Shown piece after piece: positions 9,203 through 47,275 of a stretch of 64,000 bases of DNA. The first letter of the stretch is position 1. Every line of letters starts with the position of its first letter. The position numbers were made by a program, and so were the translations under genes. Origin of the DNA: a virus (lineage: Duplodnaviria; Caudoviricetes); IMG/VR virus record IMGVR_UViG_3300032007_000010. One strand, given 5' to 3'. The notes under the pieces were generated by a model. The model did no database searches and was not told where the DNA came from. It saw only the letters and a program-made list of their open reading frames with translations.

Positions 9203-9715
9203 ATGAACAAAGAAGTGAATCCCATCCGCATCAGCAAGGACCTTGCCGAGAGCATCGTTCATCAGCTGAACGTTGCACTCAACGCGCAGTGCTTCGACGA
9301 GAAGCTCGGCACACATGACGATATCAAACTCTTTGGACACCAGAGCATTTCGTACGAGCGTCTCATCGACATGCTTGAGCTGCTCGAGCATCCGGAGCGC
9401 ACCGAAGAGCACCAGACCGTCGAGGTTGATCACGGTACTCAGCAGATTGTGATCTCACTCATGGATGCTCTCAACCTCAGCGACATGCTCAATCGATGCA
9501 CGATCATGTTCGGCTGGCTCATCGACGTTGACGATGCCGGGGCCCTCGAGGCTCTCCGTAGCCTCAACGAATCTATCGGTAGGTCGCTGGTAGGGTTCGG
9601 TGGATCCGAGGCATATCTCAGAGCAAATGCGCAGTGGGCAAGCTGGCGCGATGGGTGCAAAATCAAGGAGGGTCAAGTCAATGGCAAAGAAGGACAGGGA
9701 AGCTCCGAAGGCTGA
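9203..9715 (+). CDS. Hypothetical protein
   Basis: aaggag RBS before ATG 9203. Confidence 0.7.
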   Translation: MNKEVNPIRISKDLAESIVHQLNVALNAQCFDEKLGTHDDIKLFGHQSISYERLIDMLELLEHPERTEEHQTVEVDHGTQQIVISLMDALNLSDMLNRCTIMFGWLIDVDDAGALEALRSLNESIGRSLVGFGGSEAYLRANAQWASWRDGCKIKEGQVNGKEGQGSSEG

Positions 9716-10088
9716 CATCAAGCAAATTCACGGATACCTCAACGAACGTCACAACAAAGTTGTGGCAACCGTTGCCTGGGGTGATGGAGATCCGAAGCTC
9801 AACATCCGTGCCTGCTGGGAGGATGATGACGGCGAGCTCAAGCTCGGCAAGGGCGTCACGCTCACCGCGGAGGAGGTTGATGAGCTCACCGGAATCCTCG
9901 TATCCGCACGCAACACCGGCGAGATTCAGAAGGTGAACAAGGAAGGGCGCAAGGCCGTGAACTTCAACAAGATCTTCGCCGAGGGCCAGGAGGTCCTCGA
10001 CAAGAGGGCTGACGGTCACACCATGACCAAGGACGGTTTCGTGGTGCTCAAGAAGCGTCCCGGAGTGAAGCTTCCCTATGAACAGTGA
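9681..10088 (+). CDS. PC4/YdbC-like ssDNA-binding protein with C-terminal extension
   Basis: WGDGDPKLNIRACWE...KLGKGVTLTAEEVDEL resembles the PC4/YdbC signature; aaggagg RBS. Confidence 0.7.
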   Translation: MAKKDREAPKADIKQIHGYLNERHNKVVATVAWGDGDPKLNIRACWEDDDGELKLGKGVTLTAEEVDELTGILVSARNTGEIQKVNKEGRKAVNFNKIFAEGQEVLDKRADGHTMTKDGFVVLKKRPGVKLPYEQ

Positions 10089-10096
10089 GGTAGAAG

Positions 10097-10600
10097 ATGT
10101 CGATCATGTATCTCATGTCCGGCCCAAGCGGTGCCGGAAAGACAACCTTTGCAAAGAAACTCGCCGAGGATAGGAACCTGCAGTATCTCGGCATCGACGA
10201 TTTCTACGCCGTATTCAACGGCTCTGAGAAGAGACACGAGGATGAATTCGATGTGTGGATGGCCTTCTTTCAGGCCATCCACCTCGCTGAGCTCAAGGGG
10301 CGCAACATCGTCGTGGACACCAATTCTCCGACCAAGAGCAAGCGCACCGAGTTCCTGGATTGGTTCGGCGGATTCGACCAGCACGTGCTAATCTTCGTCA
10401 ATGCTCCCGTGGAACTCTGTGTTGCGAATAACCTGTCCCGCGAGCGTGTAATTCCGGAGGATGCAATGAACGAGATCATTGCCAGCATCGAGCATCCTCT
10501 CATCGAAGATGATCCACGCTGGGACAATGTCCAATGTTACATGAACAGGAACAACACCGGATATGATCTATATCCGACACCGACGAAGAAAGGCAGATAG
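10097..10600 (+). CDS. P-loop kinase (polynucleotide kinase/AAA_33-like)
   Basis: GPSGAGKTT Walker A, VVDTN and lid-like NLSRER. Confidence 0.8.
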   Translation: MSIMYLMSGPSGAGKTTFAKKLAEDRNLQYLGIDDFYAVFNGSEKRHEDEFDVWMAFFQAIHLAELKGRNIVVDTNSPTKSKRTEFLDWFGGFDQHVLIFVNAPVELCVANNLSRERVIPEDAMNEIIASIEHPLIEDDPRWDNVQCYMNRNNTGYDLYPTPTKKGR

Positions 10601-10602
10601 CT

Positions 10603-10776
10603 ATGAAGATCAGTGAGGTAGTGTATACCCTCAACAAGATCATTGCCGAGCACGGCGATCTCGAGCTGGTCGTGACCAGCGGTGATGGTGACGAGCGCAT
10701 GCCCGTCACCGATGTTGGAATCAGCGAAGCACTGGGCGGTGGAGATCTCGCCGCCTACGTTAGCGCCGACGAATGA
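10603..10776 (+). CDS. Small protein (MKISE family), below the ORF-track cutoff
   Basis: MKISEVVYTLNKIIAEHGDLELVV... 57 aa, translated manually. Confidence 0.65.
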   Translation: MKISEVVYTLNKIIAEHGDLELVVTSGDGDERMPVTDVGISEALGGGDLAAYVSADE

Positions 10777-10788
10777 AGGAGTGGTACC

Positions 10789-11046
10789 ATGAAGGCAGAA
10801 GATATTCGCAATGCCAACAAAAAGGTGATGGAGCTTGACAATCTTGTCAGACTATACAATATCATCAAAACGGATGTGGTGAATGGCGCTCCGAACTACG
10901 ATGGCTACATCCACCGTCACGGGGATTCGTTTCGGATCAATGTTGATGGTATGTACATCAGACCGGACAAAGAATTCATGGATTTTCTGACCGGTTGGAT
11001 CAACGGTAGGATCACCACGATCAAAGCCGAGATCGAGAAACTCTAG
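10789..11046 (+). CDS. Hypothetical protein
   Basis: aaggag RBS, in operon. Confidence 0.7.
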   Translation: MKAEDIRNANKKVMELDNLVRLYNIIKTDVVNGAPNYDGYIHRHGDSFRINVDGMYIRPDKEFMDFLTGWINGRITTIKAEIEKL

Positions 11047-11067
11047 ACATTAGGAGGATGAATCAAC

Positions 11068-11313
11068 ATGGAAGTCAAGAAACTCAATGAATTTGCACCC
11101 AGAGTATTTGACATCGTCAGGCAGATCTGCGACGACGCCGCGGCCGCAAAACCCGGCAGCATCGAGTTCCGCTCGGCCATCGACGAGCTCGACGACTGCT
11201 CCAAGGTTCTGCTGAGCCAGTTCGACCCTGACACGGTGCGCGACATCGAGGAGAACACGTGCAATGATAACCTCTGCACACTGTTGGAGGAAGCTGAACC
11301 CTTCCTGCAATGA
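11068..11313 (+). CDS. Hypothetical protein
   Basis: aggagg RBS. Confidence 0.7.
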   Translation: MEVKKLNEFAPRVFDIVRQICDDAAAAKPGSIEFRSAIDELDDCSKVLLSQFDPDTVRDIEENTCNDNLCTLLEEAEPFLQ

Positions 11314-11349
11314 GGTAACGATCATAAAAATATAGGAGGATCAAGAAAT

Positions 11350-11958
11350 ATGGAAGCGGCAAAACTGATCGAAGATGTCACAAGCGCATTTGAGCATCTC
11401 GATACCAATCCCAAGGTGGTCATCGGCAACATGGATCTCATCGGACATCTCGAGATCGACAGCGTCGGTGCCGTTCGCTCCGACGCCGATGAACGCCACG
11501 GCTACATCAACGATGTGATCATCTACGCCAAACTTCCGGAGTCGACGCGCAGCGCATACGATGCAATGCATAATAACATCGCAAAGGTCGTCAACACCAT
11601 CAATGTCCTCGAAAACGCCGCAAGCTCCGAACGGTGCAAGGAAGCGCGCGAGCTTCTCAACGAATTCGAGCTCATTGCGTCCCAACTTGCTTTCGTCTCC
11701 GGCATCACCAGCATCGAACAATATATGGAGAACGTGCCGGACGCTGTTTTCGAGCCCGAGAAAACCCATGCCATGAAGATCAGCGAAGTCATCTCGGCTC
11801 TCGAGGCAATCAAGGTGATTCAGGGTGATATTGAGTGCATGTGCCCGCCCTGTTCCGGCGACAACTTCCGTCCGGTGGAGCGCGTCGGCACCGGTATCTA
11901 CGATGATGGAACCGTCAAGGCCGACATCATGGACGGTGCAGATCCGGAGGAATTGTGA
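11350..11958 (+). CDS. Hypothetical protein with C-terminal MKISE-family module
   Basis: aggagg RBS; MKISEVISALEAIKVIQGDIEC in the C-terminal part. Confidence 0.7.
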   Translation: MEAAKLIEDVTSAFEHLDTNPKVVIGNMDLIGHLEIDSVGAVRSDADERHGYINDVIIYAKLPESTRSAYDAMHNNIAKVVNTINVLENAASSERCKEARELLNEFELIASQLAFVSGITSIEQYMENVPDAVFEPEKTHAMKISEVISALEAIKVIQGDIECMCPPCSGDNFRPVERVGTGIYDDGTVKADIMDGADPEEL

Positions 11959-12374
11959 TGCCGAGAAAGAAAGCCTCAACGGAGGCAGATACACAGATGT
12001 CAACCGGTAGGGTTAAGCTGCTCAGCGATGGGGTCCATATTCTCGGCACCGAGTATAAAATAGAGATTCATAGCACAAATAGCGACAAGAAGTTGTTGAC
12101 CTCGGACGGCTACATTACCTATGGCGCTCATGTCATAGTCATCGAGGATATGATGGATTCAGCCTATGATGGCTATACGACCGAATGCATTGCACAACAG
12201 TGGAAGAGCACATTGAGACATGAGATTGTCCACGGTTTTCTCCGCGAGAGCGGATTGGGCTCAGGCTGTGGAAAGTTTGATAGAGGTTGGGCAAACAACG
12301 AGGAAATGGTCGATTGGTTTGCCCTCCAGGGCCCGAAGATCATGGAAGCCTGGAAGGAGTGCGGTTGTCTATGA
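11955..12374 (+). CDS. HExxH metallopeptidase-like phage protein
   Basis: TLRHEIVHGFLRESGL...NEEMVDWFA. Confidence 0.7.
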   Translation: MMPRKKASTEADTQMSTGRVKLLSDGVHILGTEYKIEIHSTNSDKKLLTSDGYITYGAHVIVIEDMMDSAYDGYTTECIAQQWKSTLRHEIVHGFLRESGLGSGCGKFDRGWANNEEMVDWFALQGPKIMEAWKECGCL

Positions 12375-12547
12375 GGATCTCCAAACTCATCTCATTCCTC
12401 AAGAAGGTTGAGAAATCAGAAGGCGACATCAAGGTCGGGTTCTATCTCTCGGACTACGGCGAGGATGCCAAACTCGAATCCACCATGATCACCAACGGCA
12501 AGAAACCGAAGCTCCTGATCATGCTTGAACTCAAGAAGGGAGATTAG
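12371..12547 (+). CDS. Small protein (MKISE family)
   Basis: MRISKLISFLKKVEKSEGDIKV; ATGA overlap with the upstream stop. Confidence 0.65.
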   Translation: MRISKLISFLKKVEKSEGDIKVGFYLSDYGEDAKLESTMITNGKKPKLLIMLELKKGD

Positions 12548-12829
12548 AGCCATGGATCAAATGAACCTCACAGATCTCGAGGCAACCAAACAACTTTTTG
12601 ACAGACTGAAGATTCTCTACGCCGAGAGTACAGAAGATCTGGGCAGTGAAGAAAACCCATGGTTTCAGATCATCGGCGTCTCTGGTACCGAGGCTTCATC
12701 CGTCGTCGTGACTATGGCTACATCGAGAAACTCAAGTACGTCAAGATAGCCCGTCGCAGTCTCAGTCGCATCAGAAGAAAGCAGAAGATCCAAAAGAAAA
12801 TACAATCATTATTCAGGAGGTAACACACT

Positions 12830-13678: not shown

Positions 13679-13990
13679 ACCAATGCTAAAAAATCATATT
13701 CAACAACTGCAGCGGCTTCAAGACCGAAGCCCTCTACGACAAGATGGTCGCAGCGCTCGGCGACGTCTTTGGAGAATTCCGAGAGCACAACCGTTTCGAA
13801 CTCTATCCATGGGACCACGAGGGTCCGATGTCATGGTATCATTGTAACTTCTACTTCAGACCGGACGGAAGCTTTGTGCTGATCGACTACGGTGAATAAG
13901 AGATGAACCCCGGGATAAAAATCCCGGGGTCTCTTTCTTTTTATACAAGATGCTACAGATCTATAATGGACATCAGATAAAGTATCCCTG

Positions 13991-14533
13991 ATGCTGCCCA
14001 TTTTGACATGGTTATATACCTTGGGAGATGGAAGAAAGGGGTATATGACAATCATGATACTGTCCGAAAACACCTATATCCGCATCGGTGAGATACCGAA
14101 GGACAAGCACTCCACAATATACTACAACGGTCTTCCGGTCGGCAAGGAGGACGGTCTTGCGGTCTACGACTGCGCCCGAGACAAGGATCTCCATGACTGG
14201 AGAATCGTATTGTCCAAGCCCGTGAATGGTGCAACGGTGCTGATTCTCGCGGATCTGCTCGAGGCTGTCTACGCCGGCGAAGCCAAGGTCTACATCATTG
14301 TTGGCAAACGGATTGGAACCTCCACCGATGGAACACCGCTCATCGATCCGCTCGCCATCATCGAGGATGTGACCGATCAATTCCGGGAACTCCCGGATCT
14401 CGCACAGATGCGAGCAAATGAAGTAGAACCACGCAGCGGCAAGACCTACATGGATCTGGCCGTTGCTAAAGTTGATAAGAAGGAGGATGAACATGCCACC
14501 GAGGAAGAACAGCGCCATCCCGAAGGCGATTGA
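13991..14533 (+). CDS. Hypothetical protein (true start probably ~14045)
   Basis: ORF following RACA-N4-TATA motifs at 13954 and 14005. Confidence 0.7.
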   Translation: MLPILTWLYTLGDGRKGYMTIMILSENTYIRIGEIPKDKHSTIYYNGLPVGKEDGLAVYDCARDKDLHDWRIVLSKPVNGATVLILADLLEAVYAGEAKVYIIVGKRIGTSTDGTPLIDPLAIIEDVTDQFRELPDLAQMRANEVEPRSGKTYMDLAVAKVDKKEDEHATEEEQRHPEGD

Positions 14534-15776
14534 TACCTCGCTGCTGGAGGTTGGCTATGCGCGCTACAACGCCGCCTCCGGCTGGGACGATCTGGAACGA
14601 GATGACGACGGCTTTGTGATACTTCGTCCGACGGCTTCCCACGTCGATCGTCACATGAATGCTCTGAGCACCGACATCGACACGCTCGAGGCGAAGCTCA
14701 AGAAGTACCGCAAGGAACAGGCCGAAACCGCGAAGTATCAGAAGTCCGAGGAATACAAAGAGTCCAAGAAGAACGAAAACAAGAAGAAGAAAAAGAAGAA
14801 GCGCGAGACCCTCATCAACATGGTCTTCAACACCGCCGATGCGGACAACGCCGACGAAGATGAGGAGCTCTACGATGAGGAGGACGGTTCCGGCTACATC
14901 GAAAAGAAGAAGCGCGGTCGTCCCAAAAAGGTGGGCAACTCGCTCGATACCACCTATGGCATGCGCTTTGCGCCGATCATGGACATGCTCAACCAAAAGT
15001 CCCAGGAGTTTGACCAGATCGCAAAAGACATCGAGGCTGAGCTCGCCGAGAACAAGAACAGTGCCAGATCCATGTATCGATCCTCGCAGATGAGCAACAT
15101 GCTATCGGCCAAGTCATCGTCGCTCTCGGCCATCACCTCCATGGCATCTCTGGCCACGACTCTTTCCAGACTCGAGTATCAAAAGGAGAAAGATAAGCGG
15201 GCCGAGACCGGCAACCAGGATAAGGAAGTTGCCAGCATGGCCGCGAAGTTCCTGCGCGGCAGCCTCGACGACATCGAGGACGAGGACTTCTCCAAGAAAC
15301 GCAAGAAGAAGGACAAGAAGGGAAAGAAGGATAAGAGCACCAGAAATCCCTATGGTAACTTCAAGTCACTCTCTGCCGACGATGACGATGATGACGAGGA
15401 TGTTGCAACCTTCGGAAGCATTAGCAAGTCCGGCGGAAAGAAGGGAAAGGTGTCCGACGAAGAACAGAAGGAGCTTGCCATGGAGTTCGCCAAGACTCTC
15501 AAGAGCCGCAAGGACGAGATCAAGCTCACACCGCACGAGAAGGCGCTCGCGCTCGAGGGAACCTTCCATGTGATGGTGCTCTGTGATCCGCTGGATCCTA
15601 ACGGTACCTGGAAGTATGTTCCGATAGACAATAAGTCCGGCAAGATCCTCAAGGATGATGCATACAAAGATCTTCTTCCCAAAAAGAAGAAGGCTCGCAT
15701 GAGATTTTCGCTCGAAAAGGGGAGAGCGATCGACCTGAACTCGGCTAGAACCTATAAACTGATGTACAAATCATAA
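14493..15776 (+). CDS. Highly charged (Lys/Asp-rich) hypothetical protein with coiled coils
   Basis: aggagg RBS before ATG 14493; poly-K and poly-D tracts; N-terminal RDDDGFVIL motif. Confidence 0.8.
   Translation: MPPRKNSAIPKAIDTSLLEVGYARYNAASGWDDLERDDDGFVILRPTASHVDRHMNALSTDIDTLEAKLKKYRKEQAETAKYQKSEEYKESKKNENKKKKKKKRETLINMVFNTADADNADEDEELYDEEDGSGYIEKKKRGRPKKVGNSLDTTYGMRFAPIMDMLNQKSQEFDQIAKDIEAELAENKNSARSMYRSSQMSNMLSAKSSSLSAITSMASLATTLSRLEYQKEKDKRAETGNQDKEVASMAAKFLRGSLDDIEDEDFSKKRKKKDKKGKKDKSTRNPYGNFKSLSADDDDDDEDVATFGSISKSGGKKGKVSDEEQKELAMEFAKTLKSRKDEIKLTPHEKALALEGTFHVMVLCDPLDPNGTWKYVPIDNKSGKILKDDAYKDLLPKKKKARMRFSLEKGRAIDLNSARTYKLMYKS
15732..15776 (+). repeat. Copy 1 of duplicated C-terminal coding segment (DLNSARTYKLMYK)
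   Basis: The same peptide is encoded again, with different synonymous codons, at 16882-16926. Confidence 0.85.
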
Positions 15777-15872: not shown

Positions 15873-16883
15873 ATGAAAACAGTAAAAGAGGGAGAACGTT
15901 TTGGCAGGCTTACTGTTACAGGATACAAAGCAACAGAGCGCTGGTCAAATGGTAAACTCAAGTATGTATATTATTGCAAATGTGATTGCGGAGAGACAGT
16001 AGAAGTTGACGTATACAATCTTTTGAGTGGTCGATCAACAAGTTGTGGGTGTTATGTGCGTGAAATAAAAAAGATTCGAAGAGACAAGGAAATGCTTGGT
16101 AAACGGTTTGGTAAGCTAACCGTTATAGAACCTGTAGAGACTGAAAAGAAAAGCAACGGAAAAGACTATATTGTTCGATACCGTTGCAAATGCGATTGTG
16201 GTAATACATGTATTGTGCGTTATTCTCAATTAGTAGGGGGTCTTACAAAAAGCTGTGGGTGTTTACATCATGAAATACCTGCGGAGAAATATGCTGTCAA
16301 TAAAGATAGCGTGAATAGTAGGCTTTATTGGATCCATGCAGGTATACTAGATCGGACTAAAAATAACCCCGTGTATATTCCACGCGGGATTGCCGCCGAG
16401 TGGGCGCTTCCGAATGGTGTTGGATATAAAAATTTCAAAGAATGGTCATATAAAAACGGCTATTACGAGCAGCCAAAAGAAACCCCTCGAAAGGATAAAT
16501 TAACAATAGATAGATGGCCAGATCCAGAAGGGCCGTATTCACCGGATAATTGTCGGTGGGTTACAATGAAGGAACAATCAAACAATAGATGGACAAATTC
16601 TAAAATACGAATAAATAATAAGATATACAATTACGCTCAAGCCGCTGAAGTATTTGGCCTTGGCGAACATTTCATAAATCATAGAGTGATGGGAGGGTGG
16701 AGTAATTCGGCCATTGCATACGCTATTGAACATCAAGATCTTAGCGTTCATCGTAAAAACCGCGAATATTATGACAAGTGTGGTTTTCGTGTATTGATTC
16801 CGAGAACAAACGAGGATTTTCCAACAGCAAAAGGAACGGGAAGCAATAAAACAAAGCTAAAAGGAACAGATGTTGTGGTATGA
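15873..16883 (+). mobile_element. Free-standing HNH-type homing endonuclease gene
   Basis: Two G.RFG.LTV...C.CDCG...SCGC repeats and TIDR..D..G.YSPDNCRWVT..EQ.NNR; markedly AT-rich relative to its flanks. Confidence 0.85.
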
Positions 16884-16926
16884 TCTGAATAGTGCTCGTA
16901 CCTATAAGCTGATGTACAAGAACTGA
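16882..16926 (+). repeat. Copy 2 (orphaned) of duplicated C-terminal coding segment
   Basis: gat ctg aat agt gct cgt acc tat aag ctg atg tac aag aac tga. Confidence 0.85.
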
Positions 16927-16985
16927 ACATTTATATGATGCTCAGCCGCAGGGTGTCGATTTGTTTCATGATCTTCTCCTTTGAA

Positions 16986-17009
16986 ACCCCTCCCATTTCC
17001 GGGAGGGGT
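16986..17009 (+). terminator. CCCCTCCC hairpin family copy 2
   Basis: acccctccc-atttcc-gggaggggt. Confidence 0.7.
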
Positions 17010-17046
17010 CTTCGTTTTGAATATATAATATAGAGGTAATGATCAA

Positions 17047-17547
17047 ATGATGGGAGGATTTCACATGAATAACAGATGGGTAAACGGTAGGAAGGTTGAA
17101 CCAACCGAGCGTCAAAACGAAGTTCTTGGATTTTTGGACAAATTCATTCAGCACGGTGTATCCAACGACAAGGCTCACGGAGTTGATGTGTTATACAACC
17201 AATTCATGAGTGGATACTGTCTACACTTCGCATTGATGCTACAGGGGCTATTTCAGCGCGGCAAAGTATGCCTCGCTGCTCCCTTCGGTCACATGGTCTG
17301 GATGGACGACGATGGAACCTGCTATGATTATGGTGGTTTCTATGATGGCGAAGCGTATTACTTCATACCGATTGATATGATTCCGAAATCCATGCTCACA
17401 GATTTCCGTCATGTTCCGAGCGAGGTGCCAACGGCGTACATATCAAAAACTCGGTGTATTTGGCTTATGAAGAGATACTGTGATCTGGCTGGAATCGATT
17501 ACGATGCTGAAGCCGAGCGCTATCTCAAGCCCAGTGCTGTGCGATAG
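17047..17547 (+). CDS. Hypothetical protein (possible Cys-His papain-like fold)
   Basis: FMSGYCLHFALML...GHMVW...YDYGG pattern; likely start ATG 17065. Confidence 0.65.
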   Translation: MMGGFHMNNRWVNGRKVEPTERQNEVLGFLDKFIQHGVSNDKAHGVDVLYNQFMSGYCLHFALMLQGLFQRGKVCLAAPFGHMVWMDDDGTCYDYGGFYDGEAYYFIPIDMIPKSMLTDFRHVPSEVPTAYISKTRCIWLMKRYCDLAGIDYDAEAERYLKPSAVR

Positions 17548-17552
17548 GTCGG

Positions 17553-17585
17553 ATCCCTCCCAAATAACCGGGAGGGATTCTTTTT
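17553..17585 (+). terminator. CCCTCCC hairpin family copy 3
   Basis: atccctccc...gggagggat plus T tract. Confidence 0.7.
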
Positions 17586-17672
17586 GGTCTATATAATATA
17601 AAAATGAACAATGGTGTCGAACAGCTGACGACATCATTGTAACCATACTATCAAGAAAGGAATTAGTAGACA

Positions 17673-17906
17673 ATGAAAGTTAGAGATCTTATTTCGGTAC
17701 TCGAGAACTTCGACCCTGATCTCGATGTAACCCTGAGCTTTGAGCTCGACAATGAGGGTCATACAGTACACTTTGATCCCCGCTTCGAAGAGATTGAAAC
17801 CAACGACGGCGATGTGATCGACATAGACATCGGTGATATTGAGTGCCAGGATGACTACGATGGCATATCTGATGTGCTCGATGAAGATGACGAAAACGAT
17901 GAGTGA
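17673..17906 (+). CDS. Small acidic protein (MKV.DLI..L family)
   Basis: MKVRDLISVLENFDPDLDV. Confidence 0.7.
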   Translation: MKVRDLISVLENFDPDLDVTLSFELDNEGHTVHFDPRFEEIETNDGDVIDIDIGDIECQDDYDGISDVLDEDDENDE

Positions 17907-17939
17907 AATACATAATCGGGCATACGACTCAGGAAAGGT

Positions 17940-18428
17940 ATGAACACCATGGATAGAAAACTTGAGAATGAAATCAAACTCGCCGCAGCGTTGCTCAAGC
18001 ATATCGACGGGTCTACTCCCGATGAGATGCGTGAGTATCTCGAGGATCTTGAACCAAAGGATGCGAATGCGCTCTTCGAAGACCTTGACGAACTCAAGCG
18101 GCTGCTGCGACGCATCCATGAGCACTATGACGGAGGGCTGGAGACTCCGGAGCGCATCGATCTCGATCTGCACTTTACCCACATTACCCAGGAGGCAAAG
18201 AACCGTATTCTCGCCATATGTGGGTTCAGCGATCTTTTCAGAATGGGCGACGAACCCGTCATATCGTTTATTGGAAACATGGGCGATGATTTCTTCGGCA
18301 TGAGCGCCAAGATCGAGTGCACATCTCTTCCGACGAGCCAACACGAGGATGATCTGGAGATCGAGGAAGCTCGTAGGAAAGGTGAGCTCATCGAGGAAGA
18401 TGGCGAAGGAGACAATGAAAATGAATAA
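17940..18428 (+). CDS. Hypothetical protein
   Basis: 162-aa ORF in operon. Confidence 0.7.
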   Translation: MNTMDRKLENEIKLAAALLKHIDGSTPDEMREYLEDLEPKDANALFEDLDELKRLLRRIHEHYDGGLETPERIDLDLHFTHITQEAKNRILAICGFSDLFRMGDEPVISFIGNMGDDFFGMSAKIECTSLPTSQHEDDLEIEEARRKGELIEEDGEGDNENE

Positions 18429-20022: not shown

Positions 20023-20671
20023 TCAGGAGAATAATATTCAGGCGATGCGGAATTACTGGAATACGCATCCGGAGATTCGAGGCATCAACCCTGTGACTTT
20101 CTGGTTGCACATGTACTATGCATATGCGATGCAGACGTTCATTCCGGGAGTTTCCAAGAATCCGATGTATATCGTATCCGAAGTCAAGCTCATCGAGGAT
20201 ATCGTCGACTATCGATCCAGGACCGAGGAGAACATCACCGATATTGACCAAAAGGCGCAGTTGATCAAGGACTTCATCGATCGCGTGGATGAATACATTA
20301 GATTACACCATTCGGACGTGGTTGACGCCCTCGAGGTTATCGCCGAGAATCCGGACTATCTATCCGCAGTGATCTTCGTGAACGATGGTAGCTTTCGCAC
20401 CAATCGCATTATCCTGTCAGAGGCTGAGTTCGCGTATTGTGCCATCGAAAGGAACGGGGAATGCGTCCTCATCAACACCATCACGCACAATCAAGCTGAA
20501 CCTGCGATAAAACATATCATCGAGGAAGATGGTGTGATATTCGTGCAACTTGTGCCCAAAGCGTACACGGAAAGGATTCTCAGATATAACCGTTTGATGA
20601 GTCAGATCGGCCACTATGGCAGCGAACCATCATACCGTCGCATCGGTCCGTTACCTTCGATCTGGTTCTGA
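20003..20671 (+). CDS. Hypothetical protein
   Basis: MYPMSPDQ... ORF overlapping the upstream gene end. Confidence 0.65.
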   Translation: MYPMSPDQENNIQAMRNYWNTHPEIRGINPVTFWLHMYYAYAMQTFIPGVSKNPMYIVSEVKLIEDIVDYRSRTEENITDIDQKAQLIKDFIDRVDEYIRLHHSDVVDALEVIAENPDYLSAVIFVNDGSFRTNRIILSEAEFAYCAIERNGECVLINTITHNQAEPAIKHIIEEDGVIFVQLVPKAYTERILRYNRLMSQIGHYGSEPSYRRIGPLPSIWF

Positions 20672-20762
20672 GGAATCAAAGAAACCGCTTCCTTCGTGGG
20701 GCGGTTTCTTTTTGCTCGAACATCCATATATAATAGACATCCCCGAGAAAGGAGACATTCTC

Positions 20763-22094
20763 ATGCTTCATGTAGGACGACCACAGGACTATCCAGATGA
20801 CTACGGGCAGTGGAATAGACTCTATTCCGTGCAAGAATGGCCCGAGGAAGAGGTCATCCAATACGATCGTCATATCCAAAAGACAAGCTATAACCAGGCC
20901 ACCATCACCGGTGCCGTGGTCGACTGGATCAAGTCATTCTTCCCGGCAGGATATTTCAAGCGCACGAGGATCACCACCGAATCTGCGTATGGGGAATTCA
21001 AGAGTTTCATGCGCAACATATACAAGCTCGAAAAACCGTTCATGATCATCGATCCACAATCCATCACCCACGATGATGAGAGCCTCTTTGGTCAGAACAT
21101 GACCGATCGCTACAACTTCTATGATCCGGGGAACGAGGGCATTGGCCCCGCCCTGATCTACTCGCTTCCGATCCTCAAGACGGATTCCATCGAGCTCGTC
21201 TATCGACGCAATCGTTTCCGCTTCGACTTTGACATGATGATCATGGAGCAGAATCTGGATCGTCAGCTCAACACCTACAACATGTTGCTCATGCGCATTC
21301 GGCATAACTCAAAGTTTACGCTGGATCGAACGCTTCCGTATCTGCTGCCGAGCAAGCAGATGAAATTCATCGCCAAGGTGCATGGGTATGAATATGGCAC
21401 CGAGGAGTTCGTGAGATTCCTCAACTCCGTGTCCAAATACTCGATCATCATGCGTGTCACACCCAACGGCGTGGTTCTTCACTACATGCTCGTCCCAACA
21501 CAGCTAATGTGCGAAGTGACCGGCTATCCAAACCGCGACACGCCGGAAACCAGCAATGCCATCGAGTGGGGCGCCAGGCTCACCGAAGAATTCATCTTCA
21601 AGGCTGATGTGCCGTCGGAATTCATTCTCATGATTCCCGAGAAGGCCGACTTTGTCCCCTACGAAGAAATCATCGATGACACGCCGGATCTCATCACCAT
21701 CACTAACCCGGACTATGCGGATCTGGACTGGCCCACCGAGATCAATGGGTACACGGCGGCGGTGAAGTTCGATGTGGAGTTCCAGCAGGGCGACGACAAC
21801 AAAATTGCCATTCTCCCCGAATGCTATCGCACCATCGATCCGGATATTCGCAACGTGATCCTCGAGTGTGTCCAGAAGAAGGGGAAATTATCAGATCTCA
21901 TGCTGGTGCGAGCCTACCCCAACGGTTCCTACATGAATGCGCCGGCCGTGTTTGACGACGAGGGAATCCTGACCATCGGAAACCCGCAGGTCGGGAAGCT
22001 ATACACAATTATGGTTTACATCAACCTCGGAACGATCAATATCATACGCGAGGGGAAAAATAAACAACACATCGGCACCATCGAAAAGTACTGA
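20763..22094 (+). CDS. Hypothetical protein, possibly virion structural
   Basis: aaaggag RBS before ATG 20763; long ORF. Confidence 0.75.
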   Translation: MLHVGRPQDYPDDYGQWNRLYSVQEWPEEEVIQYDRHIQKTSYNQATITGAVVDWIKSFFPAGYFKRTRITTESAYGEFKSFMRNIYKLEKPFMIIDPQSITHDDESLFGQNMTDRYNFYDPGNEGIGPALIYSLPILKTDSIELVYRRNRFRFDFDMMIMEQNLDRQLNTYNMLLMRIRHNSKFTLDRTLPYLLPSKQMKFIAKVHGYEYGTEEFVRFLNSVSKYSIIMRVTPNGVVLHYMLVPTQLMCEVTGYPNRDTPETSNAIEWGARLTEEFIFKADVPSEFILMIPEKADFVPYEEIIDDTPDLITITNPDYADLDWPTEINGYTAAVKFDVEFQQGDDNKIAILPECYRTIDPDIRNVILECVQKKGKLSDLMLVRAYPNGSYMNAPAVFDDEGILTIGNPQVGKLYTIMVYINLGTINIIREGKNKQHIGTIEKY

Positions 22095-38040: not shown

Positions 38041-40431
38041 TCAGTCGAGTTCAGATTGATATTGATCGTAGTTGATATTTTTGCTCTGCTTCGAGCTCGC
38101 CGGACCAATTTCATGGTTTTGTAGCAGATTCTTCGGAAAATCACCGTTGATATCTAAACGCTTGTACCATGGATCCTCCGCAGAGGAACCCGCATCGCTA
38201 CCTAACCCATCATCGGCAACCGCAGTTTCACCCTCGGAAAGCACGTGCACAAGCACAGTTTCACAGAGGACCTCATCCAGGTACCTTGCGTATGGATGAT
38301 TGATCGGGAGCTGGAAGGTGCATTCAAGCTGGCGATATTTTTCATTGAGGTGTTTCACATAGACCGCTCGATCATCCTTCGAAATCTTGGAGATATTATC
38401 CATGGCTTTGCGCACATCAGGCTCATTCACCACCGGATAGAGCTTCTTGGATGGGAGCAGATAGTCATCCTCCTTGAATTCTGCCACACCGGCGGTTTCA
38501 TCGAGCATGGTCACCCAGTCTGCCGCCTCATCGAGCGGAATATCCAGCATGTAGTTGAGACCGTAGAATCCCGCCACCGACTCATCGAGACGGAGCTTCT
38601 TCGGTGCATAGGGATAGATCGGCGAATCCTTCTTGAAACGAATATCCATTCCAAGCTCATCGATGCGACGGCAAATGTTGTGGGCCAGCGTCTTTCGATC
38701 CTCCGGATCCTTGCAGTGGTGGAACATGGAGATTGCCGCCCGCACATGCTTCTCATCGTGGAGTGGATATCGACGCTGTTTCGGAAGACCGAACATTGAG
38801 TCTGGAAGTTTATCCCTCTCGGCCTTGGTCATGGACTCATCGAGATTCTCTTGCGCTTCGATCACAATCGATCCAAAGTTCTTATCCCGTTTCGCATCGG
38901 TAAGTATCACATCATAGCCAGGGTGACGCACATATCGACCGGTATCGTTGCCGGCATTGAGGGTTTGCCCAACAAACTTCTTACCATAACATCTAGCCGC
39001 ATCAAATAGATCATCAATGAGAATCGGTCTGGCGCAATCTAGCTTTTGATCTTTGATCACATCGTCCACGCAGATATGGGCGGAAAGATCGTACACTGGA
39101 TCACCAACCCGTTTGCCGTAGATATTGATCATGCCGGACTGAGTAGGATAAGCGACCGAAGAAAAGACAAGATTTCCAACCTTGATATTGTCTCCATAAT
39201 GATCGAAGCCCAGCATATCCTTTACCCAGGTAGGAGTCTTCCACTCATTTCCGTATGGTTCAAATTCGCACAATGCCTTTGTGCAGTTGACGAATAGCAT
39301 ACTCTTGAGCTTCTCATAGTTCCTATCCTGGCCGGTGCAATATCGACCGAGATGAATCCAGAGGTCACCCTCACCAATATCACCAAATGCACGATCCCAG
39401 GGACCACGACGAAGCTCACGACCCTTGGCATCCTTGGAAAAGCTTGGACCATTGCGCTGTTCCTCGAAATTTTTGAGCATTGCCGGAAGCATCTTCTCGG
39501 TTGAGACGAAGATGCGACGATATTTTCGCGCACTCTCAGCCGTCTCGTGCAGTGCAGATCCGATGAACATCTGATAATAGTTGACCTTTCGCGACTCCAC
39601 TTCTTTCATGGATTCGGCCGAGATCTTGAATCCGTACTTCTTGTACATCTCGATGGCAACTTTATTGTCACAGAACACGGCGAGTGCATTGCCTCGAAGA
39701 TGTTTCACCGCATAGTCGAGGGCCTGCGTGCCAAGACCGTGCCCTCGCAGAGATTTCTCAACCTCGAGGTTTCCGATCCAATTATAGTTGTCCCCCTCTT
39801 CACGCCCATCGTCCGGATATCCAACAGCCACAGCGACGACGGGTTTTCCGTCGAGCTCCCAGCAAACGGTTGCGCAGTATTTCGAACTCGGACCGACATC
39901 CTTGAGAACACCCTTCTTACCTTTCTCGCGAAGATATGTTGTGTCCACGTTGATGAGCTTGAGGTCCGACAGCTTCATGGGTTCGCCCTGTCTATGCTTC
40001 GGATCGAGTTTGGATTTTGACGAGGATTCGGCCAGCATCGAGTCCGGGATATAGTCGTAGTCCGCACGCTTCTCATTATCCATCTCAAGATCAGTCTCCG
40101 TGCTCACATCGTCCCCGATGATGCTGTCGGTCTTCGATTCCGGAAAATCCGTACCATCATCGTGGCGAACATTGGCATTCTTCGCGATAGGAGAATGACT
40201 CGTATAGGCCGGATCGTACACCTGTTCGAGGATGGAGTTTCGAAAGAACTCTTCTCCGGTCATGTCGTGCACATCGTCCACATGATCGTCATTGTGGTCG
40301 AGGAGATTTTCTTCGGGCCTGTGATCATTCTCGAGTTCACGCTTAAGTTCGGTGTAGAATGTATCGAGCCAATCTCTGCGGTTTGCGTTGGGCTCCGGTG
40401 ACACGTTGCTGGGATGATAGTTCATGCTCAT
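38041..40431 (-). CDS. Multidomain protein: GNAT, degenerate phosphoesterase, and two F/Y.LP....YP...E..VR.A repeat modules
   Basis: LEVEKSLRGHGLGT...N..A..MYKKYGF GNAT; DLWIHLG...LVFS...INIYG resembles the 358 phosphoesterase without its metal ligands. Confidence 0.7.
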   Translation of the reverse strand: MSMNYHPSNVSPEPNANRRDWLDTFYTELKRELENDHRPEENLLDHNDDHVDDVHDMTGEEFFRNSILEQVYDPAYTSHSPIAKNANVRHDDGTDFPESKTDSIIGDDVSTETDLEMDNEKRADYDYIPDSMLAESSSKSKLDPKHRQGEPMKLSDLKLINVDTTYLREKGKKGVLKDVGPSSKYCATVCWELDGKPVVAVAVGYPDDGREEGDNYNWIGNLEVEKSLRGHGLGTQALDYAVKHLRGNALAVFCDNKVAIEMYKKYGFKISAESMKEVESRKVNYYQMFIGSALHETAESARKYRRIFVSTEKMLPAMLKNFEEQRNGPSFSKDAKGRELRRGPWDRAFGDIGEGDLWIHLGRYCTGQDRNYEKLKSMLFVNCTKALCEFEPYGNEWKTPTWVKDMLGFDHYGDNIKVGNLVFSSVAYPTQSGMINIYGKRVGDPVYDLSAHICVDDVIKDQKLDCARPILIDDLFDAARCYGKKFVGQTLNAGNDTGRYVRHPGYDVILTDAKRDKNFGSIVIEAQENLDESMTKAERDKLPDSMFGLPKQRRYPLHDEKHVRAAISMFHHCKDPEDRKTLAHNICRRIDELGMDIRFKKDSPIYPYAPKKLRLDESVAGFYGLNYMLDIPLDEAADWVTMLDETAGVAEFKEDDYLLPSKKLYPVVNEPDVRKAMDNISKISKDDRAVYVKHLNEKYRQLECTFQLPINHPYARYLDEVLCETVLVHVLSEGETAVADDGLGSDAGSSAEDPWYKRLDINGDFPKNLLQNHEIGPASSKQSKNINYDQYQSELD

Positions 40432-40439
40432 GATTCAAA

Positions 40440-44041: not shown

Positions 44042-44052
44042 TCCGAGCATGG

Positions 44053-44298
44053 GTGAAGAAGTGCAAGGATACCGCAAAGGACTATCGCGACATGGTCTAC
44101 AACGCGCACACGATCCTCAAGGACTATCACAGCTACGATGACATCATGTCGACGCCGCTGCGGGACATCATCGATGACATCGAATACTTCACGCCCAAAC
44201 TCAAGGAAATCACACGGCGCCAGGAGGCTGACCGTCTCAGAGCCGAATTTTCCGGCAAGGCTAACATGGTAAAACCGGGAGGAAGGAGATACGAATGA
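44053..44298 (+). CDS. Hypothetical protein
   Basis: ORF in operon. Confidence 0.6.
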   Translation: MKKCKDTAKDYRDMVYNAHTILKDYHSYDDIMSTPLRDIIDDIEYFTPKLKEITRRQEADRLRAEFSGKANMVKPGGRRYE

Positions 44299-44666
44299 GC
44301 AGAGAACACAAGCTCAATCTCACCCGCCCCGAGTTTCTCAGAAAGATTCTCACCGAAGGAGATGACCATCGCGACATTCGTGAGTCTGATCTGATCCAGC
44401 TCATGAATCGAGGCAATGCCCTCCCCTACTGTAGCTACACGGCCATCATGGAGCTGGATATGAAACCCTCCGACATGGTCTACATCGGCATCGATGAGGA
44501 AGGAACCGTGGCCATGAAACTCTCCAGCAAGGAGCTGGCCAAGCGGGTGAAACAACAGACCAACAAGGAGGTCATCAGCATGGGCATCCACCGCTACAAG
44601 ATGCATGTGAAGATCTCCGGTGCATATGTCTTCGTGACCATCGATCAGCTCGAGGACGAGATCTAA
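44295..44666 (+). CDS. Hypothetical protein
   Basis: aaggag RBS, overlapping stop/start. Confidence 0.7.
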   Translation: MSREHKLNLTRPEFLRKILTEGDDHRDIRESDLIQLMNRGNALPYCSYTAIMELDMKPSDMVYIGIDEEGTVAMKLSSKELAKRVKQQTNKEVISMGIHRYKMHVKISGAYVFVTIDQLEDEI

Positions 44667-44674
44667 AGAAAACT

Positions 44675-44702
44675 ATCCCCTCCCAATTCGGGAGGGGATT
44701 TT
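44675..44702 (+). terminator. CCCCTCCC hairpin family copy 6
   Basis: atcccctccc-aattc-gggaggggat followed by ttt. Confidence 0.7.
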
Positions 44703-44804
44703 GTTGTGTCAAGATCAGTACCCGTCGATGGTACAAAATAATCAGAATTCAGAAGATAAAATATCACAGGGGCCTTTATTGTGCCCCTGTGATAATGTTT
44801 TGTA

Positions 44805-46217
44805 TCAATATGTAGTAAAATCGGTAAACGAAATTCTGGAATGTTCAGTACTTTTGCCTCGTTTATGAGATTTCTCATGCTTATTCTTATCCTGATAATT
44901 TCGGCTTATCGGTGGTAGCGGAAGATATCTATCGTCATCCACAACCATATCCAGATTTTCAAACTTAGCAATATCTCGCTCCATATGAACCCCAGCCCAT
45001 CGCATCTTCCTCTTTGATTTAATTGTGTTATAGAACCTATCCCCATATAGAGACCCATCTTTCTTCTTTGGTCGTTTTCGCAATATGATAAAGCCGTTAC
45101 TATCGAAATCTGTATCTTCCAGTGTGGTTCTATACTCAGCCATGGTTCTTGGTTCGAACTCTTTTCCTCCAAGCATATGCATGGTTTTCTCGTATAAATT
45201 CTTAGATTTTTCAGTTTCGCCGCGTTTTGCATGACCGTGCCATGATTCTAGCGAATCTATCGCAGCGCTGCGCTCAATGATTCCATCTTCAACCATAGCA
45301 ACATGCTTGGTGAGTTTGCGTTTTTCGTTACGTACTTTGCCAGGAAGTACTGTCATATCAACATTATGGGTACGTAGGTTGTATCTAAAATTGAACCCAA
45401 TGAATCGAATACCTTCTGCATAAGGATGGATCTGACTCTTCGGATTGAGCTCAAGATCAAGTTTCTCTTCAACGTATCTTTTGATTTCTTTGTAGCAATG
45501 CTTCAAATACTCTTTGTCCTTATGAATAAGATAAAAATCATCCATATAACGACCATAATATTTTATCTGAAGCTTCTCTTTGATAAAGTGATCGAGTCCA
45601 TTTAGATAATAGACTGCGAGCCATTGTGACGTCTGGAACCCGATGCATAGACCGCGGGTCGACCCATCAAAATCTTCGATTGCGTATATGAGAGTATGCA
45701 TGAGGTCCTGTAATTTTTTATCTATTGGTAGCTTTCGAATCATCTTCATGCAGATCTCACGATTGATTTCATAGAAAAAATGATGGATGTCGCAAGATAG
45801 TACGAACCCATTGTTGGTGTATCCCATCTCGGCAGAAAATGCATTCATGTTATGTCTAATACGCTCCTCCGCAAGTGCACTGCCTTTTCCTTCTTGTGTT
45901 GCATAGTTGTCGTATATTAGCATTGGTTGTATGGCAGGTTCTAGGACATGTTTGCACATGAGTCGTTGAACTATTTTATCTTCAAACTGATTTGCGGTTA
46001 TCTCTCGCTTCTTCGGTTCGTATATGATAAATGAGTATAGATCAGTGATACGATAGGTTCCTTTTATGAGGCGAGTATATAATTTATTGATATTTTTGGT
46101 CAGATCTAGGTGAAATTTAACAACCTCATTGCGAGTGGTCTTTCCTTGTCGACAATGGTAGTATGCTCGCAGAAGATTTTCATAGGTAACCACATCTTCA
46201 TATCTTATAACCTTCAT
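44805..46217 (-). CDS. DGR reverse transcriptase with C-terminal extension
   Basis: IYEPKKREI, DKIVQR, CDIHHFF, GLCIGFQTSQ, YGRYMDDF, LELNPK and FIGF motifs; likely start ATG 46217 (MKVIRYE). Confidence 0.95.
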   Translation of the reverse strand: MKVIRYEDVVTYENLLRAYYHCRQGKTTRNEVVKFHLDLTKNINKLYTRLIKGTYRITDLYSFIIYEPKKREITANQFEDKIVQRLMCKHVLEPAIQPMLIYDNYATQEGKGSALAEERIRHNMNAFSAEMGYTNNGFVLSCDIHHFFYEINREICMKMIRKLPIDKKLQDLMHTLIYAIEDFDGSTRGLCIGFQTSQWLAVYYLNGLDHFIKEKLQIKYYGRYMDDFYLIHKDKEYLKHCYKEIKRYVEEKLDLELNPKSQIHPYAEGIRFIGFNFRYNLRTHNVDMTVLPGKVRNEKRKLTKHVAMVEDGIIERSAAIDSLESWHGHAKRGETEKSKNLYEKTMHMLGGKEFEPRTMAEYRTTLEDTDFDSNGFIILRKRPKKKDGSLYGDRFYNTIKSKRKMRWAGVHMERDIAKFENLDMVVDDDRYLPLPPISRNYQDKNKHEKSHKRGKSTEHSRISFTDFTTY

Positions 46218-46492
46218 CTCTTGGCCTCTTAACTTTGATCTAAACGACAGTATAAACCCACCACCATACGGTGGTGTTGATCTCATCCACGTACCAGAAT
46301 CGGTGCTATTTCAACCGAGTCGGGCATATGAATGAGCGCGGGTACGTTTCTCCATTGAAGCATAGTAGAGCCTCTCCGGACAGGATACAATCTCCTTGCA
46401 CCTACGATATGCGTTCGACTGATCCAATGTGAGATCAGTTTACTAGATCGATCGCTGCTGCACGTCTATAAGACATGCAACATAGGCACAAT

Positions 46493-46593
46493 CGGGCCGG
46501 AAACCGCCATTGGTATTGTTGGCGTTGTTGTTGTTGAAGTTGCCATCGTTATTCACGTTCCACACATTGTTGGAGTTGTTGGGATTCGGCGAA
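46493..46593 (-). ncRNA. DGR template repeat (TR)
   Basis: Non-coding, AAC/AAT-rich (reads SPNPNNSNNVWNVNNDGNFNNNNANNTNGGFRP); matches two VRs except at adenines. Confidence 0.95.
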
Positions 46594-46630
46594 CTTTACT
46601 CACGTAGACCGTAACCTAATATACATATGT

Positions 46631-46666
46631 TCCCAACAACTCCTATTGGCCCGATTGTGTCTATGT
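46631..46666 (-). other. TR-leader segments antisense to both TR ends
   Basis: 46631-46643 is the exact reverse complement of 46572-46584; 46648-46666 is the reverse complement of 46480-46498 at 18/19 positions. Confidence 0.85.
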
Positions 46667-46702
46667 GAGACAACGCATTGTGTGTGATATAAATAAACAG
46701 CG

Positions 46703-47275
46703 TCATGCAGTGAATTTATCCTTTTCGTCATCAGAGTTGTTTGCTCGTTTTATCAAAACGACAAACCCATCACTATCCCTATATTTTTCCAACTCATTCC
46801 ACTGACGTTTAATCTGACCTCTCACCCAACGCTCATGTGCTCTGATAACGTATTCCTTTCTGCTTGGCAATTTACGCTTTTTGTTGTATGCATTCTTCTT
46901 TGTATATCCAAATGCCGTTTCAACCTTAGTCATCAATTCTGCCAACTCTTTCGTGTTGTTCAAATTGGTAATTCGTGTTGATAGTTGAATAAGCGATAAT
47001 AGACGATGATAATGATCTTGTGCTTTTTCAAAATGTTTTAGCTGTTTCTTCGCAGTCTTTTTGTGCTTGGGACTCATCGCAAGAGCAGTGTTTAGTTCTG
47101 CGCAAAATTCTTCGCATTCAGATAAGATTTTATCCGTTACAACAAATCGATAGCGTTTTGGTACATATTTTTCATTATTATAGACCGTAGCCAGATATTT
47201 GAATAAGTTTTCTGAATGAATGGCCACCGCATAGGGTTCACCCTTGCCCTTGGTTTTATATTTCGGCCTTGACAT
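46703..47275 (-). CDS. avd: DGR accessory variability determinant (Avd-like) with C-terminal extension
   Basis: Basic helical protein with PKRYRF...KI motif, directly upstream of TR and RT. Confidence 0.8.
   Translation of the reverse strand: MSRPKYKTKGKGEPYAVAIHSENLFKYLATVYNNEKYVPKRYRFVVTDKILSECEEFCAELNTALAMSPKHKKTAKKQLKHFEKAQDHYHRLLSLIQLSTRITNLNNTKELAELMTKVETAFGYTKKNAYNKKRKLPSRKEYVIRAHERWVRGQIKRQWNELEKYRDSDGFVVLIKRANNSDDEKDKFTA

Follow-up and report, generated by a model that had tools for sequence, protein, structure and literature searches.

Known short docking peptides and a probable docking tag on DNA-handling proteins

The clients of sliding clamps carry short recognition motifs, among them the gp45-binding tails of T4 and RB69 gp43, gp33 and gp55, the QL[SD]LF motif for the bacterial beta-clamp and the PIP box for PCNA. 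In phage T7 the acidic, aromatic C-terminal tails of gp2.5 (SSB) and gp4 (helicase) dock on the gp5 polymerase, and the C-terminal DDDIPF of E. coli SSB acts as a hub. Atg8-interacting peptides follow the LIR/AIM pattern [DE]n-[WFY]-x-x-[LIV]; for RAD51, the oligomerisation or BRC motif is G-F-x-x-A. Eukaryotic transposases and homing endonucleases bear an NLS, and the elements recognised by proteases and chaperones can be hydrophobic with basic residues beside them.

Here we analyze a peptide tag found in a 64,000-nucleotide stretch of Caudoviricetes DNA, which we call the window, and in G001, a 231-kb IMG/VR relative that is 89% complete. The consensus of the tag is [Y/F]-R-D-x-[D/E]-G-F-h-x-L-x-[P/K/R]-[K/R], with the ten-residue core peptide R-D-x-D-G-F-h-x-L-x-K/R/P; alignment A2 gives R-D-x-[DE]-G-F-h-x-L-x-[PKR]-[KR]. 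The residues G, F and L are invariant, with L at F+3 and position +2 free, Asp is kept at -3 in 90% of tags or more, and most have D or E at -1. Thus an acidic turn precedes the F/L pair and a basic patch follows it. We found no published description of this tag.

How does the tag compare with the systems above? Like the sliding-clamp motifs, it is one short peptide placed on the flexible ends of many unrelated DNA enzymes, sometimes repeated, and used by transcription proteins (as in T4 late transcription) and by mobile-element proteins too; the clamp motifs are anchored by two or three hydrophobic residues, as the tag would be. However, D-x-D-G-F-h-x-L plus a basic tail is unlike QL[SD]LF, QxxLxxFF or a gp45-type tail, and comparison with known clamp, PIP and SSB-tail motifs revealed no resemblance. 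Moreover, searches of G001 at E<=10 with the Pfam N-terminal domains PF00712 (beta-clamp), PF00705 (PCNA) and PF02916 (T4 gp45) were negative, and the two PolB genes of this genome (174408-176507, minus strand; 178908-180956, plus strand) bear no tag, the best profile score being -3.3. The T7 and SSB tails are likewise acidic-plus-aromatic peptides on a phage ssDNA-binding protein and a replicative helicase, and both have counterparts here, in the PC4-like protein of the window and G001 and the DnaB-like protein of G001. Unlike those tails, the tag occurs on at least 12 proteins of G001, at either end or internally and followed by a basic patch, and RNAP, RT, Avd and HNH are among the clients. 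The beta-augmentation peptides of the LIR/AIM and RAD51/BRC kind share its shape (acidic residues, an aromatic residue at i, an aliphatic one at i+3), which is an analogy of form only. Finally, the cargo of chimallin nucleus import (PicA/Imp1, Chimalliviridae) includes similar classes, namely helicase, ligase, nvRNAP and homing endonucleases, and, as with the eukaryotic NLS, the label is found on selfish DNA-acting genes too. In contrast to the Chimalliviridae, where import is reported to proceed by surface patches (PMC13282480), G001 has no chimallin match, and AR9- and PBS1-like phages are not known to have a compartment (10.1101/2023.02.24.529968).

The tag and its carriers in the window

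The original prediction, made from the letters of the window, named five tag peptides, and all five (on the PC4-like protein, p14493, HNH, RT and Avd) are present where it had placed them, although the HNH copy is weak when taken alone. The PC4-like ssDNA-binding protein (9681..10088, plus strand; 135 aa from the ATG at 9681) scores 29.9 bits against PF02229 PC4, above the Pfam cut-off of 25, and also matches phrog_26484. Its PC4 core covers residues 50-102 of the long ORF, and the tag TKDGFVVLKKRP (10026-10061, plus strand; 19.5 bits with the tag profile) covers residues 143-154, in a C-terminal tail for which a low-confidence AF2 model gives coil at a pLDDT below 50. In 14 of 14 family members this tail is kept, with the pattern ...KR..G.T-T.DGFh.L[KR][KR][KR]PG.

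The clade marker protein p14493 (14493..15776, plus strand) has no Pfam or PHROG match, and consists of an N-terminal tag, long helices, an AT-hook-like KKRGRPKK, disordered stretches rich in K, E and D, and a C-terminal alpha/beta domain. It has 90 homologues at 37-99% identity, on contigs of up to 260 kb, and its tag, RDDDGFVILRP (14598-14630, plus strand; 18.2 bits), satisfies a strict pattern in 80 of the 90; the others are variants or N-truncated, so that essentially all 90 carry it. The AF2 model of p14493 has a pLDDT of 71, and Foldseek found no match for it in the PDB. Around the tag the pLDDT is about 80, and residues 36 and 42 form beta-bridges. In this model the N-terminal region that holds the tag is predicted with confidence, unlike a simple floppy tail, and the tag may be part of a small fold.

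The HNH homing-type endonuclease (15873..16883, plus strand; phrog_374, E 6.7e-55, residues 67-299) sits in an AT-rich island, with a GC content of 0.42 in 16001-18000. Directly after its core, at residues 300-311, the C-tail holds the degenerate tag YDKCGFRVLIPR (16770-16805, plus strand), whose score of 4.7 bits is on its own indistinguishable from chance. However, an HNH protein of G001 from the same family, phrog_374, ends in the homologous tag EFIDKDGFKVLIPTK (13.9 bits), which aligns with EYYDKCGFRVLIPRT of the window, and because of this alignment we take the window copy to be, most likely, a real tag in which D has changed to C.

The remaining two carriers are adjoining genes on the minus strand. 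The DGR reverse transcriptase (44805..46286; PF00078, E 6e-14; phrog_1423, E 3.5e-91) has its core at residues 25-369 and a C-terminal extension of about 120 aa with the tag FDSNGFIILRKRP at residues 394-406 (45069-45107, minus strand; 18.2 bits), while the DGR accessory protein Avd (46703..47275; phrog_3206, E 0.0028) has its core at residues 27-137 and, in its C-terminal extension, the tag YRDSDGFVVLIKR at residues 165-177 (46745-46783, minus strand; 23.0 bits). The expectation of a modular appendage outside the core folds was borne out, since the Pfam and PHROG cores end before the tags, p14493 being the case in which the region is instead modelled confidently. The tags, one to two copies, lie at the N- or C-terminal end of proteins that act on nucleic acids, including, as had been proposed, the mobile newcomers DGR RT, Avd and HNH.

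Could such a peptide recur by chance? Translated in six frames, the window has four copies of the pattern GF[VI][VI]L, and all four fall inside long ORFs that are real genes (PC4-like, p14493, RT and Avd). In 5000 residue shuffles of the 64 ORFs of the window (20,023 aa) it appeared 0.05 times on average and at most twice, and the mean dropped to 0.002 once the flanking context ([DN] before, K/R after) was required. The comparison with shuffled controls that accompanied the original prediction, 4 observed against 0.05 expected, thus speaks against chance frequency. A tag profile made from 40 tags, which include the four of the window and so make the window scan partly circular, gives the four strong window copies 18.2-23.0 bits against 5.3 for the best reversed-sequence decoy in the window, and real tags and decoys form two separate score groups. 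Synonymous codons vary among the copies, which means that the tag is not a DNA repeat and is conserved at the protein level.

The tag in G001 and across the clade

G001 carries 14 tags on 12 proteins; the tags score 11.6-20.5 bits and the highest decoy 3.7. The carriers are the p14493 orthologue, a DnaB-like protein, nvRNAP beta-N with two copies, two HNH proteins, the PC4-like protein, RT, Avd and four proteins without a recognised function; a nucleic-acid role for the carriers is based on seven nameable proteins, the other five having no known function. The set of carriers is the same as in the window, in an independent relative at 27-51% identity. The nvRNAP beta-N of G001 (616 aa) matches AR9 gp105 (496 aa) only over residues 1-493, and both of its tags lie in the extra 120-aa tail. 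Degenerate copies are found at the GyrA N-terminus and in the N-extension of the NAD-ligase. The large SNF2 protein of G001 and the PolB C-terminus of L191 bear no tag.

Within the clade, G001, L188 and L190-L192 have the tag on the same carriers again, and the DGR pair of an RT domain with an adjacent Avd is present in the window and in all five of these. Among RT homologues the tag is found in 31 of the closest 40, 22 of these having two copies, in 16 of the next 39 and in none of the next 40, that is, in 47 of the 79 closest overall. The Avd family yielded 40 representatives by phmmer, of which 39 were scored: 24 have a tag above 6 bits and 7 more a degenerate one, about 31 of 39 together. 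Avd tags are present in six genomes, and in three genomes an RT without the tag adjoins an Avd with it, which fits a label needed once per complex. The tag is under purifying selection across the clade, in the RT, p14493, PC4-like and Avd families.

Outside the clade the picture changes: the window and G001 have 4.6-7.9 tags per 100,000 aa and the controls 0-0.4, none of 47 bacterial (GTDB) RT loci has the tag, and only one of 70 IMG/VR RT loci does, namely that of G001. The cultured relatives AR9, BpSp, LPJP1, S6 and phiR1-37 have neither the tag nor an enrichment. The genes recognised in the window or L188 as structural, lysis, terminase or PPK likewise have no tag. The tag belongs to uncultured jumbo phages of gut or rumen, a lineage with kinship to Bacillus phage AR9, and the term phage-specific has to be widened to clade-wide, given that roughly 90 relatives at least share it across 37-99% identity in p14493. 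It is real, modular, conserved and clade-restricted, and among the carriers that can be named it sits on nucleic-acid proteins only.

Docking, import and other readings of the tag

We give almost no credence to the reading that the tag recurs by chance or that each protein has it as a normal element of its fold. The HNH copy by itself is not significant, and in p14493 and the PC4-like family the residues around the tag are conserved too, but both the frequency test and the comparative test came out against this reading, given the excess over shuffled sequence, the two score groups and the recurrence on the same carriers in the relatives. Homologues outside the clade lack the tag, so that the proposal of a docking tag was not overturned by its turning up in their core folds. 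Somewhat less remote, if still very improbable, is a degron or modification-docking site for timed proteolysis of the DNA/RNA machinery or its modification by a phage enzyme. The hydrophobic core and basic flank resemble protease and chaperone recognition elements, and two large window proteins (358-6459 and 38041-40431) contain GNAT domains; however, mobile newcomers have no reason to gain and keep a degron, recruitment accounts better than destruction for the several copies on the essential nvRNAP and for a tag retained throughout the clade marker family, and no protease or adaptor is linked to the tag. It is also quite unlikely that the tag binds nucleic acid directly as an AT-hook-like mini-motif, a beta-hairpin plus basic patch tethering enzymes to phage DNA or RNA, perhaps through a clade-specific base modification. 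Its distribution is indeed AT-hook-like, on tails of unrelated nucleic-acid proteins, singly or in several copies, with K/R-rich patches behind them, the p14493 model has a hairpin-like turn at the tag, and, since the relatives AR9 and PBS1 have uracil DNA (PMC7824862), modified DNA is conceivable for the clade. On the other hand, the invariant residues are G, F and L, hydrophobic anchors together with conserved acidic residues are typical of a peptide held in a pocket and not of DNA contact, and a generic DNA-binding motif is unlikely to be restricted to a single clade.

A more serious contender, though we consider it unlikely, is a localisation or import signal, in which the tag, NLS-like, admits proteins to a shielded, non-chimallin compartment or condensate of phage DNA and large cargo such as nvRNAP bears more copies. 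The carriers do read like all the proteins that need phage DNA, the selfish HNH, DGR RT and Avd included. The untagged DNA polymerase and large SNF2 protein, which a hub does not predict, could be explained by piggy-backing or co-injection, and p14493, universal, clade-private and with long disordered charged stretches, could be a scaffold. G001 also encodes a tubulin homologue, putatively akin to PhuZ (138784-139971, plus strand; PF00091, scoring 57 bits when the genome was searched and 54.9 bits for the protein itself), that has no tblastn match among cultured phages. Phage tubulins position replication compartments in the Chimalliviridae (PMC13282480), but a tubulin alone does not prove a compartment. 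Chimallin searches of the 89% complete G001 with PF25677 and phiKZ gp54 gave no match at E<=10, PBS1-like msRNAP phages have been reported to be without chimallin (10.1101/2023.02.24.529968), and we found no candidate for a shell or an importer. Moreover, an import signal of this kind conflicts with known phage-nucleus import, which uses surface patches and no linear signal (PMC13282480).

We consider it likely that the tag is an address or docking label for a common partner. A clamp, an import factor or a replication compartment, the partners suggested in the original prediction, would each be a conjecture. The lineage would have grafted a transferable short linear tag onto flexible terminal extensions of unrelated DNA- and RNA-handling proteins, and one clade-specific receptor protein would read it on all carriers, with the hydrophobic F and L anchored in receptor pockets and extra copies raising avidity. 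That the motif is private to the clade argues for a co-evolving protein reader over generic DNA binding. We infer that one protein reads the tag and that this reader sits on DNA.

The version of the docking label in which the reader is a DNA-bound hub has a chance close to, or just short of, even. Against it, both PolB proteins of G001 are untagged, while the polymerase is the first client one would expect of a replisome hub. A search for the receptor found none: the clamp-domain searches of G001 were empty, the ORFs around both PolB genes matched nothing in Pfam, in PHROGs or among PDB sequences, and the two of them examined in the ESM Atlas gave no clamp. A divergent clamp fold may nonetheless be encoded. 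According to Iyer et al. (PMC7824862), the PolB of this group is without a classical clamp.

To the best explanation as a whole, a transferable tag with a common clade-specific receptor at phage DNA, we would give even odds. Such a receptor would gather the tagged enzymes at replicating, transcribed phage DNA as a "tool-belt" hub, in the manner of sliding clamps, SSB tails and the acidic tails of T7, and the mobile-element genes of this lineage, DGR RT, Avd and HNH, would have gained the tag for the access it offers to that hub.

Tag copies in the window and their form

Our analysis finds all five tag peptides where the original prediction had placed them. When the window is translated in six frames, the core GF[VI][VI]L appears four times, and all four copies lie inside long open reading frames: those of the PC4-like protein (9681-10088, +), of p14493, a clade marker protein of no known family (14493-15776, +), of the DGR reverse transcriptase, RT (44805-46286, -), and of its accessory protein Avd (46703-47275, -). 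Residue shuffles of the 64 window ORFs (20,023 aa) give a mean of 0.05 copies against the four observed, which bears out the expected excess over shuffled controls, and the mean drops to 0.002 when an acidic residue before the core and a basic residue after it are also required. Since synonymous codons differ among the copies, the signal lies at the protein level, and a DNA-level repeat as the origin of the tag is ruled out. The window tags fall outside the Pfam and PHROG cores of their proteins. On a profile built from 40 tags, with reversed sequences as decoys, the four window copies score 18-23 bits and the best decoy 5.3. The window HNH copy, CGFRVLIPR, reaches 4.7 bits and is not significant by itself; however, because it aligns with EFIDKDGFKVLIPTK, carried by a related phage on an HNH protein from the same PHROG family, we accept it as a degenerate tag.

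The 40 aligned tags have the consensus R-D-x-[DE]-G-F-h-x-L-x-[PKR]-[KR], in which G, F and L never vary and at least 90% of the tags have D at -3. L stands three residues after F, and the position before L is free (I, V, K, Q, R or T). Many tags have an aromatic residue at -5, and some a W 7-11 residues upstream. AF2 models the p14493 tag region (pLDDT about 80) as a hairpin-like turn, its beta-bridges at residues 36 and 42, while the tail is coil in the low-confidence model of the PC4-like protein (pLDDT 47). Peptides such as the LIR/AIM motif and the RAD51 G-F-x-x-A motif bind by beta-augmentation, and the tag, with its acidic run followed by an aromatic anchor at i and an aliphatic one at i+3, would by analogy recall both.

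Several other features of the window deserve mention. The tag codons of Avd (46745-46783, -) and RT (45069-45107, -) are identical at 25 of 33 nucleotides and have the choices GAT AGT ... TTG ... AAA CGA in common, which hints at copying of the tag from one gene of the AT-rich DGR cassette to the other, unless the two merely share the codon bias of the cassette. A conserved protein (20616-22094, +), 46% identical to its G001 orthologue, which adjoins the G001 RT, reads SWGGFFLLEHP at residues 27-37, close to its N-terminus; this stretch resembles the hydrophobic core of the tag without its acidic turn and falls below the profile threshold. A 2033-aa SNF2-helicase/GNAT fusion (358-6459, +) and a 796-aa GNAT-containing protein (38041-40431, -) are untagged, and a complete polyphosphate kinase 1 is encoded at 54946-56889.

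Tag carriers across the clade

The window is part of a 287,669-bp ENA contig (ERZ27256887). Among the cultured phages of INPHARED we found no match to 21 kb of window DNA, nor to p14493 or the PC4-like protein, and in IMG/VR the clade comprises only the related phage IMGVR_UViG_3300029305_003510 (G001) and two fragments. G001 was reached through RT homologues and its whole sequence was analysed (230,855 bp, 41% GC, 89% complete); its syntenic genes are 26-61% identical to those of the window. Its phage RNA polymerase subunit, nvRNAP beta-N, matches AR9 gp105 and the proteins of PBS1, LPJP1, S6-like phages and phiR1-37 at 22-27% identity, and thus the lineage is a distant relative of the AR9/PBS1 group, msRNAP phages without chimallin (10.1101/2023.02.24.529968).

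In G001 we count 14 tags, spread over 12 proteins: the p14493 orthologue, a DnaB-like helicase (in its C-tail), nvRNAP beta-N (two copies in a 120-aa tail absent from AR9 gp105), two HNH endonucleases, the PC4-like protein, RT (two copies), Avd and four proteins without assigned function; further degenerate copies stand at the N-terminus of GyrA and in the N-extension of the NAD-ligase. Per 100,000 aa of open frame the window has 4.6 tags and G001 has 7.9, compared with 0.4 in control RT loci from IMG/VR and 0 in bacterial ones, and AR9, BpSp, LPJP1, S6 and phiR1-37 show no tag enrichment and no genuine copies. Among RT homologues, 31 of the 40 closest are tagged (22 with at least two copies), as are 16 of the next 39. 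The original prediction had proposed checking whether homologues from elsewhere lack the tail, and they do: none of the 40 more distant RTs is tagged, nor any of 47 loci in bacterial genomes, and the single tagged locus among 70 in small IMG/VR phages is that of G001 itself.

The other carriers behave similarly. Essentially all full-length homologues of p14493 keep the tag, out of 90 homologues at 37-99% identity on contigs of up to 260 kb, and so do 14 of 14 PC4-like relatives. Of the Avd representatives, 24 of 39 score above 6 bits, with degenerate copies in 7 more. Tagged Avd occurs in six genomes (the window, G001 and those of loci L188, L190, L191 and L192), in three of which RT lacks the tag but Avd has it. 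The data thus show a label that is conserved and transferable, confined to one clade and, among carriers that can be named, to proteins acting on nucleic acids. The interpretation in the original prediction is partly borne out: the idea of a modular label on such proteins stands, while the term 'phage-specific' does not, the tag being clade-wide. In one sister genome a 57-aa ORF (L190:17913-18086, +) ends in the tag-like tail VRDKDGYVRLIPAVCM (8.5 bits), which suggests that the label is found on very small orphan proteins too.

Nine of 120 RTs, none of which has the DGF tag, finish with tails resembling ANLQL[LMD][IV] or MDLSLMI. Such hydrophobic endings (ANLQL[LMD][IV]..., MDLSLMINL, QFRLML), which recall the QLxLxL clamp hexapeptide, are found on the clade RTs P0028, P0033, P0034, P0042, P0044, P0051, P0053, P0059 and P0061 and at loci L190-L192. 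We considered an alternative, 'swapped' address code in the RT tails of sister lineages and dropped it: the Avd beside three such RTs is still DGF-tagged, so no tag swap is seen.

What the tag may do

We consider it quite likely that one clade-specific protein reads the tag. Our favoured reading, to which we give close to an even chance, is that this reader would be a hub at the phage DNA, and we lean towards it over localisation or import, direct nucleic-acid binding, and a degron. Several observations speak against a classical clamp as the reader: no clamp domain was matched by Pfam in G001, the G001 PolB genes are untagged, and the PolB of this phage group is stated to be without a classical clamp (PMC7824862). 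Pfam, PHROGs, PDB sequence searches and the ESM Atlas showed no clamp among the ORFs flanking both G001 PolB genes, although a divergent one may be encoded there; unannotated ORFs in these flanks lie at 173671-174408 (-, 245 aa), 176722-177465 (-), 181036-182067 (+) and 183138-183962 (+). Two genes after the PolB gene lies a 326/344-aa protein (G001 182141-183121, +; L191:14994-16028, +) whose N-terminus is rich in Q/N/G and whose linker is rich in Gly/Arg; it has a conserved acidic tip, DDPVDINL.../DEPVDINL..., and its nearest named ESM Atlas cluster is Whirly-like. This protein is probably the phage SSB, bearing a tail peptide of its own that may serve for docking as a second motif.

That the tag is a localisation or import signal seems to us rather unlikely. 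In its compartment form, equally unlikely, the tag would admit proteins to a shielded DNA compartment or condensate of AR9-related jumbo phages that is not built from chimallin. Spatial organisation of some form is suggested by a tubulin homologue in G001, yet a chimallin nucleus is opposed by the lack of any chimallin found there and by reports that chimallivirus protein import uses no linear signal (PMC13282480). The homologue is a divergent 395-aa tubulin/FtsZ-family GTPase with the signature DGGTGSG (G001 138784-139971, +, equal to L089:5784-6971); it sits in the replication gene block without an accompanying chimallin and has no tblastn match in cultured phages. Direct binding of nucleic acid by the tag is improbable, with its conserved acidic residues, its hydrophobic anchors and its restriction to one clade all speaking against it, and a degron is more improbable still.

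p14493, universal in the clade and private to it, is a candidate DNA-bound scaffold. Besides its N-terminal tag it has helices of roughly 100 residues, the AT-hook-like sequence KKRGRPKK and long disordered stretches rich in K/E/D, and its C-terminal alpha/beta domain is confidently modelled; Foldseek against the PDB gave no match to the fold. Co-folding of two PC4-like cores with this C-terminal domain and the Avd tail scored 0.00, a result that speaks neither for nor against binding.

Literature searches on import signals and short linear motifs of jumbo phages, and on extensions of their DGR RTs, gave no description of the tag; it is a variant of the known principle of a shared docking peptide. 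Were the compartment reading true, it would be the first NLS-like address code in a bacterial virus, one that selfish elements such as the DGR and homing endonucleases would have had to copy in order to act on phage DNA. If one peptide brings at least a dozen proteins of replication, transcription and mobile elements to the same partner, then it exposes the organising hub or gate of a jumbo-phage lineage that is large and uncultured. Sequence alone would then list the orphan proteins that work on phage DNA, retroelements and homing endonucleases entering a new genome would have to gain its resident label before they could function there, and the tag would be a portable means of targeting proteins to phage DNA. 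Such routing would also allow one to ask directly how replication and late transcription are organised in msRNAP jumbo phages, which have neither chimallin nor a classical clamp.
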